DNA from: Candidatus Bipolaricaulota bacterium
GTDB lineage: Bacteria > Patescibacteriota > Patescibacteriia > UBA11705 > DATKZF01
Reading direction: 5' to 3'
Assembly: GCA_035528115.1 (NCBI GenBank)
Contig: DATKZF010000003.1
Span: forward strand, 487,089 to 551,088
DNA length: 64,000 bases
Of this stretch, positions 32,290 through 40,390 are shown piece after piece. Below the pieces are notes generated by a model. It worked only from the letters and a program-made list of their open reading frames with translations. It ran no database searches and was not told the DNA's origin. Each line of letters begins with the position of its first letter. Position 1 is the first letter of the stretch. A program made the position numbers and the translations under genes.

Positions 32290-32326
32290 CGCAAAATAAA
32301 TTCCAAGTTCCAAATATCAAATGTAT

Positions 32327-32359
32327 TAAAATAGCGGAAAGCTTGTCTTTTCGCTATTT
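32327..32359 (+). terminator. ATAGCGGAAAG-cttgtc-TTTTCGCTAT hairpin plus T run (AGCGGAAAG family)
   Basis: Imperfect stem located after the 30277-32289 gene. Confidence 0.5.
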
Positions 32360-32591
32360 TATGATAATTGTTTTTTTACTTCCAATTTGGTTTGCCTGCG
32401 ATTGTATGTTTTTTTGCTGGCTATCTTTTTCGTCGGCCGATGCAAAACGCCGGATTTTTTGCGGGTTTTTCGGCGAAGGCTTTTGATTTTTTCTCCGGGA
32501 GAATCGTAAATTTTAACAATGATTTTCTTTTTCATAAAATTTTTTGTTTTGTTGAATTAATTATATCATGAATTTATTTTCGGCGCGCGGG

Positions 32592-32644
32592 CGTCCGGGG
32601 GCGGCCGCCCTCGGACGTAGAGACGCGCCATGGCGCGTCTCTAC
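32592..32644. repeat. Two consecutive GC-rich hairpins: CGTCCG..CGGACG and GTAGAGACGCGCC-atgg-CGCGTCTCTAC (AGAGACGCG family)
   Basis: The second hairpin is nearly identical to those at 21352 and 51584. Confidence 0.6.
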
Positions 32645-33752
32645 AACGCGCGTTCGCGCGTTCGTCCGCGCGCCAAATCAAAAAGCGGCCATGAAAGCCG
32701 CTTTTAGATTAGCATCAACCTGCCATTTTACCCGATCAAGATGCTGTTGCCAAAAAACTGGATAGTTGGAGAGAGATTTAAAGAACATCTATCTCGTTTT
32801 TGGCAAACAGTATGCTGACAGGGTAAATCGCTCGCGAATCCTACCCGAATTTAACTATACGATGTATGACTTATTACTTGTAACTTCAAATCGTTAATTA
32901 AATTCGGGTAGGCGGGAAAAACTAGTTTGTTTTTCCCACCGGCTTCACCACTTACGGTAGGTTACACCGCCTTGCTTTGCTGGCGAGGCTGACGAGGGCC
33001 GGACACACGTATGCCCGGGAGCGGTTATTAACGGATCTCTCCGTCACTCCAGAGAAAGGCTACACCCCAAGGATTACTCCCCGAAAGGTTCACCAGCCCG
33101 TTGGAGCCAACCGCTGCGCAAAGTCCCCCGGATGGACAATCAGCGCTGTCGCGCCTTCTTCACGTCGGGCGCCCATCACGGTCATACCCAACGCTGCCTC
33201 ATTATGAGCATCTCTACTCCATCTCCTTGTAGATTGCCCTTGCCATGGAACCGGTCTTCGAAATTAGTGAAGACCGTCCCCCAAGTTTTTTATCTTGTTA
33301 CACAACTCCTATGGCCGGCCGTTTTTCAAATAGGTCCGGCTTGTTCGAAGCGTTGCAAGGGGTGGGGACTCTTCAGGGAGAGATCCCCTGTGGCGGATGA
33401 GCGATGGACCCTTTTTGGCGTTGGAGCTGAAAGCTCCTGGGTCCTGCGGTCGCGTGTCGCGCGACGCTTCATCCGCCGTTTCCGGTCCGGCCATCCTGAT
33501 GGCCGGCTAGCCTCGTTCTGGGCGCACCCGGCTAGCTGGGCGCGTTCTTTATGAGCACTGATACTCTCCTTTCTCGGTGATAAAGAATGAGCGCGCGCTC
33601 CCTTAGCCTATTTGGCCGAAGGAGCCGCCGTACGCGCTCAGCCAGCCTGAGTCTCCAAGTTAATCTTCGAAAATCAGGTTGGCCGGAGACGTCCTAGGTG
33701 AGGTTGTCTCCGATGGGGGAAAGAACGAGGAGGGGTGGGGTGGGGGAAAGGG

Positions 33753-34100
33753 TTACTTCTTCTTGCTCTTCTTGCCCTTCTCCTTACGAGCCTGGGACTG
33801 CAGCCCGGTCTGGCCCGACTCGGAGCCCTTGCTCTGGAGTCGGATCTCGCGATCGTTGTCGGCCCGCGCCTTGCGCCGCGCCTCCTGGTCCGCCGGCCGT
33901 CCCTTGCGGACGCCGCCGGGGCGGTTGAATTCCATTTTTCGGCCCCCGCTCCAACTGCCCCAGGGGGAGCTGACGGAGGATCGTCGGTTGCACTCCTCGA
34001 TGCGCTTGAGCACGAGCGGTGGTGGCTCCACGGAGACGAGCACGCATTTCGTCTGGGTCGGGGTGGGATCGGATTCTTTCGTGATCGCAACCATGTTCAT
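33753..34100 (-). CDS. Hypothetical small basic protein (115 aa) with a lysine-rich C-terminus inside a GC-rich islet
   Basis: Strong AAGGAGGG RBS 5 nt upstream of ATG and a TTGACA -35-like element; the sequence is not low-complexity except for the KEKGKKSKKK tail. Confidence 0.35.
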   Translation of the reverse strand: MNMVAITKESDPTPTQTKCVLVSVEPPPLVLKRIEECNRRSSVSSPWGSWSGGRKMEFNRPGGVRKGRPADQEARRKARADNDREIRLQSKGSESGQTGLQSQARKEKGKKSKKK

Positions 34101-34939
34101 TCCCTCCTTGGGGTGGGGTGGTTGTGTGTCCCTGAAACTACGATGTAGATGAGCGTGCTAAAGAAAGATTTGAAGGGTCATATAAATTAATAATTACCCT
34201 TGTCTTTTTTAGCTTTCTCTCTCCTCTACATCCCGGTTTCAGCGACTCTTTAAGGAAAAAAATAGACAGAAAAGATTCTGCCAGATCGCGAATCACAGCT
34301 TCGCGATAGCCTTGAACGAAAATTATGCTTTGTTCAGGGCTTGGCTGACTCTCTCCCAAAAGTCCGCTTGGTTTTCAAAGTTTCATTGTGACTTGGTATT
34401 ATATCATAATTTAATGAATTTGTCAAGCGTGGACGTAAAAAGGATTCATATTTTATCTAAAATTACATAAATCAAGAAGGATTATTAAGAGATGGCTTGT
34501 TTCGTCTCGCGCATTTGGCGCTTCGACGACCCACTTTTTGACGCCAAAAAGTGGGCAACCTGCCTGCCGGCAGGCAGGAAAGCGCTGGGGGAAAATGATT
34601 CGTAAAGCGACAATTTAATGTTAACAATCTCGCGACGGCTCAGCATTTTCCCCCAGACCCCCGGTGCTATCCGCGCGTGATTCGTCGATATTAGGACTTT
34701 TGCCTTTTATCTGCCTCATTGTTTTACCAAGGTTCGATTTTAACCGGCCAAAGAGGCAGGTAGCCGGCTACCTGCTTTTGAGAAATTAAGGAACGCTGAG
34801 GAGACCCCTGACGAATGCAAGGGGACGACGAAGCGAACCGGACGTTAGTCCATAACCTGCCCCCCGACCTTTAAAATAAGCAATAAAAAGGGAGGGGGGA
34901 CAAGGGGGGAGGGTTAAAATTATGAGGTTTCATGGCATA

Positions 34940-34975
34940 AAAAAAGCCGCCCCATTCGGGGCGGCTTGAAATTGA
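34940..34975. terminator. Bidirectional hairpin AAGCCGCCCC-attc-GGGGCGGCTT flanked by A and T runs
   Basis: Lies directly 3' of the minus-strand sugar transferase gene. Confidence 0.65.
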
Positions 34976-34984
34976 CGTTTATTA

Positions 34985-36412
34985 TTAAATGGCCGATAAA
35001 CCTTTTAGCACCACCCATGGCGTTTTCAAGAAAATCCACAAATCAAGGCGATATGACCAATTTTCAATATAATAGATGTCCATTTTTGCTTCTTCGTCAA
35101 AGGGCAGATCCGATCGTCCGCTGATTTGAGCCAGACCCGTTAATCCGGGTTTTATATCCAAGGTTCGAGTTTGCTCCTGAGAATAATTGGCCACTTCTCG
35201 GGGCTGATGAGGACGCGGGCCGACCAGGCTCATGTTGCCGATCAGCACATTGAAAAATTGCGGCAATTCGTCAATGCTGAACTTTCTGATGAATTTGCCG
35301 ACCTTGGTCACTCGCGGATCTTTTTTGATTTTATACAACGCGCCCCGCGACGCCCGTTGTTCCTTGATCAATTTATTTTCATACTCAAGCGCCTTTTTTC
35401 CGGCCTTGGTATTTTCATCCGTGCTGAATTCATTGTACATGGATCTGAATTTGTAAACGAAAAATTTATTGCCGTATTGTCCGACCCTTTCATTTTTGTA
35501 AATTATCGGGCCGCGCGACGTGATTTTAATGGCCAGAGCTGTCAACAATAAAATGGGGGAAAGCAGTAGCAATAAAATGAATGAGAAAACAATGTCCGCG
35601 GTTCGCTTAATGATTTTTCTCCAGCCGTCGAGCGGAGTTTTTTTGATTTCAATCACGGGAATGCCTCCGATCATGTGGGATTCGATGTTCGTGGACCTGG
35701 CCTCAAAAGGGCCTGCCGCGTATTTGAAAACGATGTGATTGTATTTGGCGAAATTCAAAAGTTTGATGGAATCTTTTCTGGAAATGTTGGGATCGGATTG
35801 AATGATTTCGTCAATGAAATATTTTTTGTGCCATTCGACCAACTTGTCGAAGGCCGTCGAATCGATTTCTTTGATTTGTCCGATGATTTTGAGTCCGAGC
35901 GAAGATTCCTTGTTTATCGTGTCTTTGATCGTCTGGGTGTACGCGTTATAGCCTACCAGCACGACTTTGTTAGTGCCCCAGCCCGTTTTGTACAAATGAT
36001 TTTGAATCATTCTGATGATAAATCTGCCCAGCACGATATAGACAATGCTCAATATCCAGGCGGCCAGAACAATGAATCTGGATTCAAAGAGTTCTCGCAC
36101 GAAAAACATGTAAATGATAATGGCGGCCATGCCCGTGGAACAAGCCATGAAAATGCGCGCCAATTCATCGGTCAAGGTCGGTTTTTTGAAATTGTAAAGT
36201 CTGCTTATAAAGAAGAAAAGAATCCAGACGACGGAGACGACGAGCGCCGCGATAATGTATTTGTCAAAAGGCAAATCAAAAATTACCGGTCTTATCTCGG
36301 TAATTTCTTGCTTGAATCTTAAAAAATACGCGGTAATGGCGGCCAGCAACAATAAAATATAGTCTGTCGCCAACCTAATAAGGACGAAAATTAATTCGGA
36401 TTTTTTTATCAT
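34985..36412 (-). CDS. Polyprenyl-phosphate glycosyl-1-phosphate transferase (WbaP/CpsE-type bacterial sugar transferase)
   Basis: Four N-terminal TM helices; C-terminal catalytic domain with KFRSM and DELPQFFNVLIGNMSLVGPRP motifs. Confidence 0.85.
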   Translation of the reverse strand: MIKKSELIFVLIRLATDYILLLLAAITAYFLRFKQEITEIRPVIFDLPFDKYIIAALVVSVVWILFFFISRLYNFKKPTLTDELARIFMACSTGMAAIIIYMFFVRELFESRFIVLAAWILSIVYIVLGRFIIRMIQNHLYKTGWGTNKVVLVGYNAYTQTIKDTINKESSLGLKIIGQIKEIDSTAFDKLVEWHKKYFIDEIIQSDPNISRKDSIKLLNFAKYNHIVFKYAAGPFEARSTNIESHMIGGIPVIEIKKTPLDGWRKIIKRTADIVFSFILLLLLSPILLLTALAIKITSRGPIIYKNERVGQYGNKFFVYKFRSMYNEFSTDENTKAGKKALEYENKLIKEQRASRGALYKIKKDPRVTKVGKFIRKFSIDELPQFFNVLIGNMSLVGPRPHQPREVANYSQEQTRTLDIKPGLTGLAQISGRSDLPFDEEAKMDIYYIENWSYRLDLWIFLKTPWVVLKGLSAI

Positions 36413-37321
36413 AGCATGGGTTTTATTGGAAGATAAATGACTACTATCATTATGCCAGTTTTATCGGTGTCTGGCAATGTCATTTGGCTTCCAATGATCT
36501 AAATAAGCCTGTAAGCCGAATTCTGTGGCCTCCGCCAAGAATTCGAACGGCAGATTTTAGAACCTGTCGGCCGAAGCCTTGGCGAAGGTCGATGACCATC
36601 TATCTAGGTCCGACATTGCTGCCGGACTCAAGCGAGCTACCAAATTTGCTCTTGCACCTGATAGGGTTTACCACGCTTGGACGTTGCCGTCCAAGGAGAG
36701 AAGTATGATTTAAATGGTCACGTGAACAATTTAACTTTTTTTCTTCTCACTTTTCACCTTTGGCCGCGAAGCGGCCACCCTGAGTGAGGAGCAGTGCGAC
36801 GAATCGAAGGGTGTAGATGTATCCTTCGACTCGCTATGCTCGCTCAGGATAGTCGCTTCGCGACTAGTATAGTCTCTGTGGCACTGGCCGTCGGCCGAGT
36901 TTCTTTCGACCCTATCTCAGAAATAATTTTCTATTCAATTGGCGAATTTAGGCTGCAAATTGTTCAAAACTCGTCACCATAATAATCATATTATGCTTCT
37001 TCGTCTTTCACAATTTTCGCTCTAAATTCGCTCAATCTCATTACGAAACTTATGTCTGAGATAGGGTCTTGTTATCTCGGCATCGCCCGGACGTTATCCG
37101 GTATCATTTTTTATGGTGTTCGGACTTTCCTCCCTCCTTCGCTCCTTGCTGCGCTCGAGCTTCGAAGGGCAAGCCCTCTTAGTTTGCGAGGGGGGTTGCC
37201 GTTCTTGGCTTCAAACAAAGCAAGGAGCGAAGAAGAGCGGTCATCCGGCTTATTCAGATCAATGAAATTATAGCAAAAAAATGATGAAATGTCAATGGTA
37301 ATTTAAAAACCGCCAGCATGG

Positions 37322-38674
37322 CTAGCGGTTGAGGAAGTTACGAAAAGCGTCGGTCACGACCATCTGCTCGAGGCGCTCGCCACAAGTGATGATGCCAAGC
37401 TGCGCGTCCGGGAAGTGTGAGGTCGAGGAATTTGTGACTCCAAGCAGGAAGTCCTGCGCCTCGTCCGGCAGTTGACTGAAACTTCTGGCCGCGCCCGTCC
37501 CGCTTTTCCAGCCGTTGAAATTGACAACGTCGGGCTCGCACAGGTCCCAGTCAGCAATGCGAGCGGGCGGGTACGCGAAGCGCTCGCCGCGAAGTTGCCA
37601 GGTATCCACGACCGGGATTTTAGGTTGACTGTCGAGCACGTCCAGTTTCGTAAAGCACAGGAAGTTCGGCGCGCAGAGCCGAATTCCTTGTCGAAGGAGC
37701 GGGAGATTGAGCGGGCCGCAACGTCGAGGGCGTCCGGTGGTGACGCCGAATTCCGCGCCGCGTTGTCGCAGAGACTCTCCGGTGTCGGATTTGTCTTCGC
37801 CGGGAAAAGGCCCGCCGCCGACTCTGGTGGCGTAGAGCTTGGATACTCCGATCGTGAACGCGATGTCCATTATCGTCAATCCCGCTTGCGCGATCAGGCC
37901 GGCTGCGGTCGTTGATGACGAAGTGACGTACGGGTACGTCCCGAACAGCCGATCAAGCAGAGCTCCTTGGCCCGGTTCGATCAGGCCGATGTCGCCGTTG
38001 CGTTTGATTTCATCGATTACTCGTAAGGTGTCCGTGACGCGACCGCCCAGCTTTCGGACGGAGTCAATGACATTGTCCACTTCGCATTTTTCTTCGGGCC
38101 GGCCGCAGCCGCGCAAGATGGCGTTGGCGAGGTCGTACGCCAGCTTGAGCCTCTGTTCAGCTTTGTCGCCGCTCTCAAGCAGTTCAAAGAATGTCGGTCC
38201 GACCCGGAATGCCTGCATGGCGTAGGTCGGGCCGATGCCGCTGCCCGTGGTGCCGATACGGTCATTGCCCATGAGAATTTCGATGGCCGCTTCGACCGAA
38301 CGATAGATCGGCAAAACGACTTGAGCGCGACCGTCGATCAAGGTTGGCGAGACGTTGACTCCTTGGGCGCGCAGGTCCGTCATTTCTTTTTTCAGCGCGA
38401 CTGGGTCGATGACCATGCCAGCTGCCAAAATGGCCGTGATGTCGGGATCGAACACGGCCAGCGGCAGGTAATGGCTTTTTTGGAGTCGACCGAAGCTGTC
38501 TCTGTACGAATGGCCGGCATTGCCGCCGCCATTGGGCCGAATGGCCCATTTGATGCGCGGGTTGTGGCTCTGCTTCATCAGCTGAGCCAGACGCAGAGAG
38601 ACAGACCCTTTGCCGTTGTCTCCGAACGTCAAATCGGAGAGTAAAATGAACCTGCCGCGAAGATTAGGCATCAT
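37322..38674 (-). CDS. purA: Adenylosuccinate synthetase-family protein, divergent and GC-rich
   Basis: P-loop GDNGKGS (PurA GDEGKGK), GGGNAGHS (catalytic His), TTGSGIGPTY, YATRVGGGPFP, GVTTGRPRRCG, and the GTP-specificity motif TKLD. About 62% GC, in contrast to the AT-rich promoter TTGACT-17-TAAACT upstream. Confidence 0.8.
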   Translation of the reverse strand: MMPNLRGRFILLSDLTFGDNGKGSVSLRLAQLMKQSHNPRIKWAIRPNGGGNAGHSYRDSFGRLQKSHYLPLAVFDPDITAILAAGMVIDPVALKKEMTDLRAQGVNVSPTLIDGRAQVVLPIYRSVEAAIEILMGNDRIGTTGSGIGPTYAMQAFRVGPTFFELLESGDKAEQRLKLAYDLANAILRGCGRPEEKCEVDNVIDSVRKLGGRVTDTLRVIDEIKRNGDIGLIEPGQGALLDRLFGTYPYVTSSSTTAAGLIAQAGLTIMDIAFTIGVSKLYATRVGGGPFPGEDKSDTGESLRQRGAEFGVTTGRPRRCGPLNLPLLRQGIRLCAPNFLCFTKLDVLDSQPKIPVVDTWQLRGERFAYPPARIADWDLCEPDVVNFNGWKSGTGAARSFSQLPDEAQDFLLGVTNSSTSHFPDAQLGIITCGERLEQMVVTDAFRNFLNR

Positions 38675-38751
38675 GGCCTCTCTTTCTTTGTATGTCATTG
38701 CCCATGGAAAGTTTAGAAGCTTTGAGGAGAAAAGTCAATCATTGCGCAATT

Positions 38752-39406: not shown

Positions 39407-40390
39407 TTATTCGTTAATTATTAACCCTATGTTTTTTTTGACTCTCGCTAATGTTTTTTCGGATATTTTTTTCGCTTCGCGCAAGCCTTGTCCCAGAATT
39501 TTTTGCGCTTCTTTATCATCGACGTTTCTCATTCTTTCTTGAATCGGAACCAGGAATTCTATGATTTTTTCAGCCAAATCTTTTTTGAATTCCGAATAAG
39601 CCGCGCCTTTGTACTTTTTTTCAATTTCTTTGATTTCTTCCCCGGAAACCAGATGGTAAATGGTCAGCAAGTTTGAAAGCGCGGGTTTGTCTTTGGCATA
39701 AACGATGTCAGAACCGGAATCAGTGACCGCTTTCATTATTTTTTTTCTGACGACTTCCGGCGTATCGGTCATGGCGATGTAATTCAATTCGGATTTGGCG
39801 GACTTGCTCATTTTTTGGGTCGGATCGTCAAGTCCCATGACGCGAGCGCCTAATTTCGGCACGATCGGTTCGGGAATTTTGAAGGTGTCGCCGTAAATTT
39901 TATTGAATTTTTTGGCGATTGTTCTGGTCAATTCCACGTGCTGGATTTGGTCCTCTCCCACGGGCACGACATCAGTGCCATAGAGTAAAATGTCGGCCGC
40001 CATCAGCACCGGATAATCAAACAGGCCGGTATTGATGTTTTCTTTGTGCTTTTGGGACTTGTCTTTGAATTGCGTCATGCGCTCCAGCTCGGCCATTGGC
40101 GTGATGGTGTTTAATATCCAGGCCAGCTCGGCGTGCTCAGGCGCTTGCGATTGAATGAACAGTGAGCATTTTTTAGGATCAAGGCCGGCGGCGAGATAGA
40201 GCTTTGCCAAATTATAGGTATTTCTTTTCAGCTTTTCCGGATCTTGATAAACCGTCAAAGCATGCAAATCAACGATGCAAAACAAACAATCATACTCATT
40301 GATGAATTTGATCCAATTTTTGATGGCGCCGAAATAATTGCCCAGATGAATTACGCCGCTCGGCTGAATGCCGCTGAAGACTCTTTTCAT
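39407..40390 (-). CDS. trpS: Tryptophan--tRNA ligase
   Basis: Class I N-terminal GIQPSGVIHLGNYFGA and KMSKS. Confidence 0.9.
   Translation of the reverse strand: MKRVFSGIQPSGVIHLGNYFGAIKNWIKFINEYDCLFCIVDLHALTVYQDPEKLKRNTYNLAKLYLAAGLDPKKCSLFIQSQAPEHAELAWILNTITPMAELERMTQFKDKSQKHKENINTGLFDYPVLMAADILLYGTDVVPVGEDQIQHVELTRTIAKKFNKIYGDTFKIPEPIVPKLGARVMGLDDPTQKMSKSAKSELNYIAMTDTPEVVRKKIMKAVTDSGSDIVYAKDKPALSNLLTIYHLVSGEEIKEIEKKYKGAAYSEFKKDLAEKIIEFLVPIQERMRNVDDKEAQKILGQGLREAKKISEKTLARVKKNIGLIINE

Follow-up and report, generated by a model that had tools for sequence, protein, structure and literature searches.

The 64-kb window analysed here lies on JGI metagenome contig Ga0307379_10000002 (at least 604 kb) and contains, between the minus-strand genes purA (37322-38698) and a Bac_transf sugar transferase (34985-36412), a block (36470-37270) in which a sequence-only reading had proposed a structured RNA. 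The Rfam scan that this reading put forward as a check identified the element: cmscan across the window returned a match to RF00010, the bacterial class A RNase P RNA, covering 36496-37181 of the minus strand (142.8 bits, gathering threshold 100 bits; E 7e-44) and spanning the full model (positions 1-367). RF00010 was the sole Rfam family matched across the window; at E <= 1 cmscan returned no others, barring meaningless plant miRNA-type matches on long hairpins. The block at 36496-37260 (-) is almost certainly rnpB, the gene of a bacterial type A RNase P RNA, in a genome of the Patescibacteria (candidate phyla radiation, CPR).

All conserved regions, CR-I to CR-V, align with the model consensus, with CR-I reading GAGGAAAGUCCG, J11/12 ACAGAGA, J12/13 AAGGUGAAAA, CR-IV AGAUAGAUG, and CR-V ACAGAAUUCGGCUUA in the cmscan alignment. 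Pairing in the block also goes far beyond chance: for 36490-37265, the minus strand has a folding energy of -343.8 kcal/mol, well below that of its dinucleotide shuffles (-220.6 ± 8.3 kcal/mol; z = -14.8). The proposed architecture—local stems nested within long-range helices—is borne out, and every element listed at the time was recovered within a few bases of its given position: GGCCGC-gaa-GCGGCC (36761-36777), CCTGAGTGAG...CTCGCTCAGG (part of a 24-nt inverted repeat, 36765-36788/36839-36862), TCGAAGG...CCTTCGA (36800-36810/36823-36833), AGTCGC-ttc-GCGACT (36850-36866), a 14-bp pairing of GACCCTATCTCAGA with TCTGAGATAGGGTC (36908-36921/37055-37068) that extends to 24 nt with 92% complementarity, CCGGACGTTATCCGG (37087-37101), which is helix P8, and GAAGGGC-aa-GCCCTC (~37164-37179), near the tip of P3. 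The region had been called divergent, which is incorrect: both flanking genes and the RNA lie on the minus strand, so these helices had been read from the complement of the true transcript and represent the complements of P3, P8, P9, and P12 with their extensions. The description as GC-rich holds for part of the block only, with ~47% GC overall and 37.5% in its centre (36900-37099). There was no indication of a coding remnant in the block, on which tblastx was not run.

The 5′ end of the gene lies outside the Rfam match. Here, cmscan forces P1-P3 into the tip of a longer P3, so that the true 5′ strands of P1-P3 are lost. P1/P2 pairing and homology to two relatives, L126 and L146, in which P1 is in register, extend the 5′ end from Rfam's 37181 to 37260. 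The P1 3′ strand GGCUUAUUUAGAUC (36509-36496) forms 14 bp with GAUCUGAAUAAGCC (37260-37247), and the P1/P2 register is the same as in the cmscan alignment of the short-P3 relatives L126 and L131 and as that of L146 in the multiple alignment described below. With its ends placed by P1 pairing and the promoter, rnpB would comprise ~765 nt (36496-37260, -).

The promoter (37267-37295, -) combines a -35 box TTGACA, a 17-nt spacer, and an extended -10 box TGcTATAAT; it matches the consensus at 12 of 12 positions, carries the TG ahead of the -10 box, and ends at 37267, 7 nt before the predicted start at G37260. The region holds three promoter-like sites, compared with 1.6 ± 1.2 in shuffles. A terminator-like hairpin of purA (37330-37308) sits just upstream of the rnpB promoter, and the sugar transferase gene has a promoter-like site of its own ahead of it (36477-36449). 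Together, the gene's own promoter, the purA hairpin, and the site ahead of the transferase argue for a separate transcription unit of ~765 nt, which would be read on the minus strand, with a sigma-70 promoter of its own, apart from purA upstream and the sugar transferase downstream. Of the two options that the sequence-only reading had offered, the independent non-coding RNA gene is thus the one borne out. The other—a cis-acting leader or riboswitch of the sugar transferase or purA—could draw on the position of this highly structured block between two same-strand genes; it is, however, contradicted by the full-length RNase P RNA match, by the promoter and terminator arrangement just described, by the lack of any riboswitch or leader family above chance at E <= 1, and by the persistence of the RNA in relatives that have no purA, so that we give it practically no weight.

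The gene order RNase J–tryptophanyl-tRNA synthetase (TrpRS)–(hypothetical gene)–(purA)–rnpB–sugar transferase is kept in relatives, and Rfam matches to rnpB occur at the syntenic site in L131 (469 nt), L126 (599 nt), L122 (607 nt), L128 (307 nt), and L129 (310 nt). A 714-nt homologue in a Patescibacteria metagenome-assembled genome (MAG), GCA_049319825.1 (L124:14925-15638, +), was found by nhmmer and synteny; in Rfam it goes unreported at the gathering score. Another 18 metagenome loci were retrieved with a P15 pattern specific to the clade. A lack of conservation in relatives had been named beforehand as an outcome that would speak against a structured RNA; instead, the RNA is kept in relatives, with compensatory changes.

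These changes were counted in a six-sequence MAFFT alignment (A1), in which CR-I, P3, and P5 are misaligned in four sequences and from whose pair counts P3, P4, and P5 are left out; the extensions of P3, P12, and P19 were compared by pairwise segment alignments. In A1, 94.5% of cells are paired and 39 pairs show two-sided changes, the shuffles giving 19.1 ± 2.9 and none of 500 reaching the observed count; slid controls gave 4-10 pairs with two-sided changes and 32-45% paired cells. P1, P2, P8, the base of P9, P10, P11, the base of P12, P13-P15, and P18 are 97.6-100% paired, and among the core helices P1, P2, and P7-P11 (numbered 1-5 and 10-11) pairing is 90-100%, 14 pairs showing two-sided changes.

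For the structure model, the core helices follow the model alignment and were set manually, and each insert was folded separately. Core pairs in the assembled structure are all canonical, among them the six of the P4 pseudoknot; CR-I to CR-V, P4, and helices P1, P2, P5, P7-P15, and P18 are intact. Running from the 5′ end of the minus-strand transcript, the 5′ strand of P1 (GAUCUGAAUAAGCC, 37260-37247) has all 14 of its pairs 100% paired in A1, four with two-sided changes, and that of P2 (GAUGACC, 37245-37239) pairs with GGUCAUC (36597-36591; 100% paired, one compensatory pair). CR-I (GAGGAAAGUCCG, 37133-37122) contributes to P4, in which AAG(U)CCG (37127-37121, with a bulged U) forms six canonical pairs with CGGCUU (36518-36513) inside CR-V (ACAGAAUUCGGCUUAC, 36526-36511); the P4 columns are invariant or misaligned in A1, placing compensatory change there outside the counts. 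The stretch 37118-37087 comprises the 5′ strand of P5 (37118-37115), J5/7, the 5′ strand of P7 (37106-37102; 90% paired), and the P8 hairpin CCGGACGTTATCCGG (37101-37087; 100% paired, two compensatory pairs). P9 (37086-36890) consists of a conserved base, a GCCGAG/CUCGGC stem (37081-37076/36899-36894), and an inserted hairpin; base and stem are 97.9% paired with five compensatory pairs in six sequences, and P9 in full has a folding energy of -80.7 kcal/mol (z = -11.4).

In the remainder of the specificity domain, the 5′ strands of P10 and P11 (36889-36880) and J11/12 (ACAGAGACUAUAC, CR-II) occupy 36889-36867, with 3′ strands at 36672-36664 (100% paired), and the stretch 36761-36675 holds J12/13 (AAAGGUGAAAAG, CR-III), P13 (36748-36698; stem 100% paired, one compensatory pair), and P14 (36696-36675; 97.6% paired, five compensatory pairs). 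The 3′ strands of P7 and P5 (36663-36655) share 36663-36634 with P15, a 4-bp GAGC/GCUC hairpin whose loop AAAUUUGGUA holds the GGU (UGG) motif; P16, P17, and P6 are missing, the cmscan alignment having 0 nt where the model has 34. P18 (GUCCGGCA-GCAA-UGUCGGAC) and CR-IV (CUAGAUAGAUG) lie at 36627-36598, and P18 is 100% paired with six of its eight pairs changed on both sides. Both P14 and P18 are capped by GNRA (GCAA) tetraloops.

In type A RNase P, the RNA and the small RnpA protein bind the acceptor and T arm of pre-tRNA via the specificity domain (P7-P14), the 3′-CCA is bound via L15, and the 5′ leader is cleaved at the P4-centred active site. The RNA described here would fold into this standard catalytic and specificity core and, judged by its sequence, would be active in cleaving the 5′ leader from pre-tRNAs, with the GGU of L15 predicted to be available for pairing with the tRNA 3′-CCA.

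The gene measures ~765 nt rather than ~370 nt because hairpins have been added at the tips of P3, P9, P12, and P13, together with a P19-like arm. Relative to the 367-position model, the extra length amounts to ~85 nt in P3, 163 nt in P9, ~80 nt in P12, ~35 nt in P13, and ~50 nt in the P19-like arm, and all five insertions are located at terminal loops or tips of peripheral helices. The expanded P12 (36759-36866, -), a 108-nt hairpin (-60.4 kcal/mol; z = -9.0), contains the AGTCGC, CCTGAGTGAG, TCGAAGG, and GGCCGC elements mentioned above; its base is homologous to the 7-bp P12 of L146 and L131. The extension is common to the window and L126/L127 (87% identity), where 35 of 38 pairs are kept (32 same, 3 changed on one side, 3 broken). 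The expanded P3 (37135-37238, -) is a branched hairpin of 104 nt in place of ~20 nt in the consensus (-56.2 kcal/mol; z = -7.2); its extension is common to the window and L124 only, with 33 of 39 pairs kept (27 same, 4 one-sided, 2 compensatory). The P19-like hairpin (36527-36590, -; 64 nt; -33.6 kcal/mol, z = -4.9), inserted between the P2 3′ strand and CR-V, occurs only in the window and L124, at 86% identity and with 24 of 25 pairs kept (23 unchanged); it is absent from L146, L126, L122, and L131. The addition to P13 is an inner hairpin present in all six sequences of A1 and nearly invariant in sequence. Finally, L146, the relative whose P1 is closest to that of the window, has an RNA of 416 nt devoid of the P3, P9, P12, and P19 additions.

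This mosaic points to repeated gain and loss of inserts. The additions would accordingly differ in age, the one in P13 being subclade-wide, that in P12 shared with one relative lineage, those in P3 and P19 with another, and that in P9 specific to this genome. Most likely, the added hairpins would point outward from the active site as tolerated expansion segments, presumably retained in the mature RNA and neutral rather than needed. A stabilising or protein-binding role is possible, especially for the conserved tip of P13. There, the inner hairpin (36704-36742, -) carries a palindromic loop, UCACGUG (GUUCACGUGAC), that is nearly invariant in the window, L146, L126, L124, L122, and L131 and that could bind a protein, make a tertiary contact, or engage in a kissing-loop interaction.

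The P9 insert (36908-37070, -) is a 163-nt AT-rich hairpin in the P9 loop whose base is the 14-bp pairing noted at the outset. It is absent from all five close relatives in A1, in which the loop reads AUAAU-UAAUAAA, the sequence that is here split by ~163 nt. The insert is 75% self-complementary over 167 nt, with basal arms of 24 nt that are 92% complementary. The palindrome could in principle be an assembly artefact, that is, a spurious join in a metagenome contig, as assembly errors can produce palindromes and the hairpin is found in one genome only. Against this, the arms are imperfect over both lengths, unlike the perfect repeats of artefacts, the locus is interior to the 604-kb contig, and the same neighbourhood is recorded on eight contigs (their rnpB DNA was not read); we therefore regard an artefact as highly improbable.

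As to its origin, the 3′ arm of the insert (UCUGAGAUAGG) is similar to the 5′ strand and loop of P9 in L146 (UCUGAGAUAAU), a single comparison that hints at a local inverted duplication. With respect to the hallmarks of a mobile element, inverted arms are present, but no second copy was found in the window, which makes up roughly one-tenth of the contig, or in 1.2 Mb of related loci, and sequence comparison revealed no evident target-site duplication at the junctions. The location in a terminal loop and the sporadic distribution do fit an intervening sequence of the rRNA type. In 23S and 16S rRNA, intervening sequences are comparably sporadic, strain-specific, AT-rich long hairpins in terminal loops of an essential RNA; in contrast, excision of the P9 insert is a candidate event.

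It is conceivable, if rather unlikely, that the hairpin is a recent selfish or intervening element that is cut out—for instance by RNase III—to leave a two-piece RNase P RNA. Its occurrence in only one of six close relatives, this genome, its placement precisely in the terminal loop of P9, its AT-richness (38% GC for the P9 segment) beside a core of ~50% GC, its long, near-perfect pairing as in an RNase III-like substrate, and the repeat motifs that AT-rich rnpB hairpin inserts of relatives have in common with intergenic hairpins all speak for such an element. Its single-copy state and the junctions speak against it, as does the TTTAGRATTTAG AT-rich repeat family of relatives' inserts, which we tried as a source of the P9 insert and which has 0 matches in the window. 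Moreover, excision of inserts from a bacterial RNase P RNA is not known to have a precedent, and no intervening-sequence element is known in rnpB.

Several points weigh against a working, single-copy rnpB with tolerated inserts. RNA ends, processing, and the fate of the inserts are predictions; a second, compact rnpB elsewhere in the genome is possible, the window covering 64 kb of the contig; 6 of the 39 pairs of the P3 extension are broken in L124; and the P9 insertion, seen in this genome only, is without comparative support. A tblastn search of the window for rnpA, using E. coli and B. subtilis RnpA sequences, gave no match and is uninformative, and the window contains no tRNA genes. One could thus picture the locus as a decaying rnpB pseudogene, with a working RNase P—a second rnpB or a protein-only enzyme, for example of the HARP type—encoded elsewhere. 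The RNA is indeed twice the normal size, its 5′ end is misplaced by Rfam, and the L124 homologue falls below the Rfam gathering score. Yet the conserved regions and core helices are without exception intact and canonical, no insertion falls within the core, and the promoter matches the consensus perfectly; in relatives with independent insertions, compensatory changes have preserved the core, indicating selection. We therefore consider decay very improbable and retain the reading of an rnpB gene with an intact core and peripheral expansions.

Across 26 sequences, with relatives that keep the gene neighbourhood, rnpB ranges in size from 316 to 1027 nt (the maximum in L144), and each peripheral segment varies independently. 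The span from CR-I to CR-V is 606 nt in the window and 849 nt in L144, compared with a median of 332 nt and a maximum of 588 nt among 105 type A genes from many phyla, a background that consists of matches to an over-general CR-I variant pattern (GAGGAAAGTCCGAACNCCA) and is not a random sample. Within that background, spans of 588, 546, and 533 nt were seen in an Acidobacteriaceae MAG (L087), Candidatus Uhrbacteria (L102), and Saccharibacteria (L024), respectively, so oversized RNase P RNAs also occur outside this clade and outside the CPR.

In L144 (9393-10419, +; ~1027 nt), the P3 and P19 extensions have 85 of 127 aligned positions identical, against 65 ± 3 when shuffled, a likeness in sequence that suggests duplication of one arm, P3 or P19, into the other site. 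The AT-rich rnpB inserts of relatives (L124:15165-15339, L122:13673-13830, and L144:9546-9740) are built of TTTAGRA/GAAATTC-type repeats. Such repeats also occur at L137:4260-4340 and 610-621 and at L147:3590-3690, and they form intergenic hairpins in other contigs, whereas the window lacks the motif; the P12 insert of L124 is 89% identical to L137 over 45 nt, a likeness that low complexity may inflate. Speculatively, the clade might represent a natural series of rapid, rRNA-like ribozyme growth, in which hairpins are gained, lost, and duplicated between helices, some of them seeded by AT-rich intergenic-type repeats, with the P9 hairpin as the youngest addition, which might be excised to yield a split RNase P RNA; at present we hold this to be a tentative proposal, with the balance leaning against it.

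Compared with known type A RNAs (RF00010; E. coli M1, Thermotoga maritima RPR), the RNA shares CR-I to CR-V, P4, helices P1-P5, P7-P15, and P18, the GNRA loops on P14 and P18, the GGU of L15, and organisation as a separate transcription unit. It differs in its size (~765 nt as opposed to ~330-400 nt), in the extended P3, P9, P12, and P13 and the P19-like arm, and in lacking P16, P17, and P6—present in E. coli and variable among bacteria—so that P15 is a simple hairpin. The RNase P RNAs of CPR genomes have been described as diverged, either through "large extensions of helices" or through loss of helices (Lui, Nielsen and Arkin 2021, PMC8172020); many lack P13, P14, P16, and P17, 10 of 35 fall below Rfam thresholds, and two-thirds lack UGG. 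The arm with P16 and P17 is thus not a defining feature of class A, as its absence is reported to be common in the CPR (PMC8172020). The RNA agrees with that set in organism group, in its helix extensions, in the missing P16 and P17, in the need for manual refolding, and in that some members (L124) score below threshold. Unlike many of them, it keeps P12, P13, P14, P18, and UGG/GGU, and it is extended at five sites at once; furthermore, the earlier study (PMC8172020) holds no within-clade comparative series such as the present one (316-1027 nt). No further literature came up in a text search combining RNase P RNA with Patescibacteria. The gene is hence an unusually large RNase P RNA of a known kind, helix extensions in the CPR having already been reported.

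Growth at peripheral tips that leaves the core unremodelled is shared with the expansion segments of rRNA and of archaeal and eukaryal RNase P RNA; in the latter, P3 and P12 grow by expansion segments according to an accretion model (PMC12974513), and these two helices are the usual growth points. By contrast, growth in the present case is recent, varies among close relatives within one bacterial clade, and involves no known protein partners.

For annotation, the locus represents an essential housekeeping gene and not an unknown RNA—an ordinary gene, whose size is at the extreme for bacteria. Standard Rfam annotation finds it but sets its 5′ end ~80 nt too far in; it misses the L124 homologue and would list that genome as devoid of RNase P RNA. 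Because peripheral helices grow and shrink independently around an unchanged core, the clade can be used to study how structured RNAs gain expansion segments and which additions a ribozyme tolerates.

Our assignment of the organism to the Patescibacteria rests on the source names of TrpRS homologues: those at 60-75% identity are named Patescibacteria, Falkowbacteria, Kuenenbacteria, and Parcubacteria. The TrpRS of the window (39407-40390, -) is identical in an NCBI third-party annotation (TPA) MAG record labelled 'Candidatus Bipolaricaulota bacterium', which is probably a misclassification, as the close homologues and the gene content (DUF4012, small genome) indicate Patescibacteria. Next to rnpB, purA has ~60% GC as against ~43% in its neighbours, and is at the site in L122, L126, and L131 and absent in L124, L128, and L129, a pattern in composition and occurrence that suggests horizontal acquisition beside rnpB.

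Downstream of the transferase region, a 77-nt intergenic stretch (32744-32820) is 83-87% identical in L122, L126, and L135; it received no tRNA or Rfam assignment, and a perfect palindromic hairpin (32840-32912) adjoins it. The sequence-only reading had also raised the question of homology between the rnpB block and 32650-33750. A blastn comparison of 36470-37270 with 32300-34950 (word size 7) returned only chance matches of 9-17 nt (E >= 2.6); the two blocks are unrelated. The high-GC part of this region (32930-34150) is likewise unrelated to rnpB by blastn and has no Rfam or Pfam match. With 55-71% GC against ~43% for the genome, and with nothing corresponding to it in the syntenic regions of relatives, it has the look of foreign DNA that is particular to this genome. 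It holds an open reading frame of 115 aa (33753-34100, -) with AAGGAGG upstream and a lysine-rich tail.

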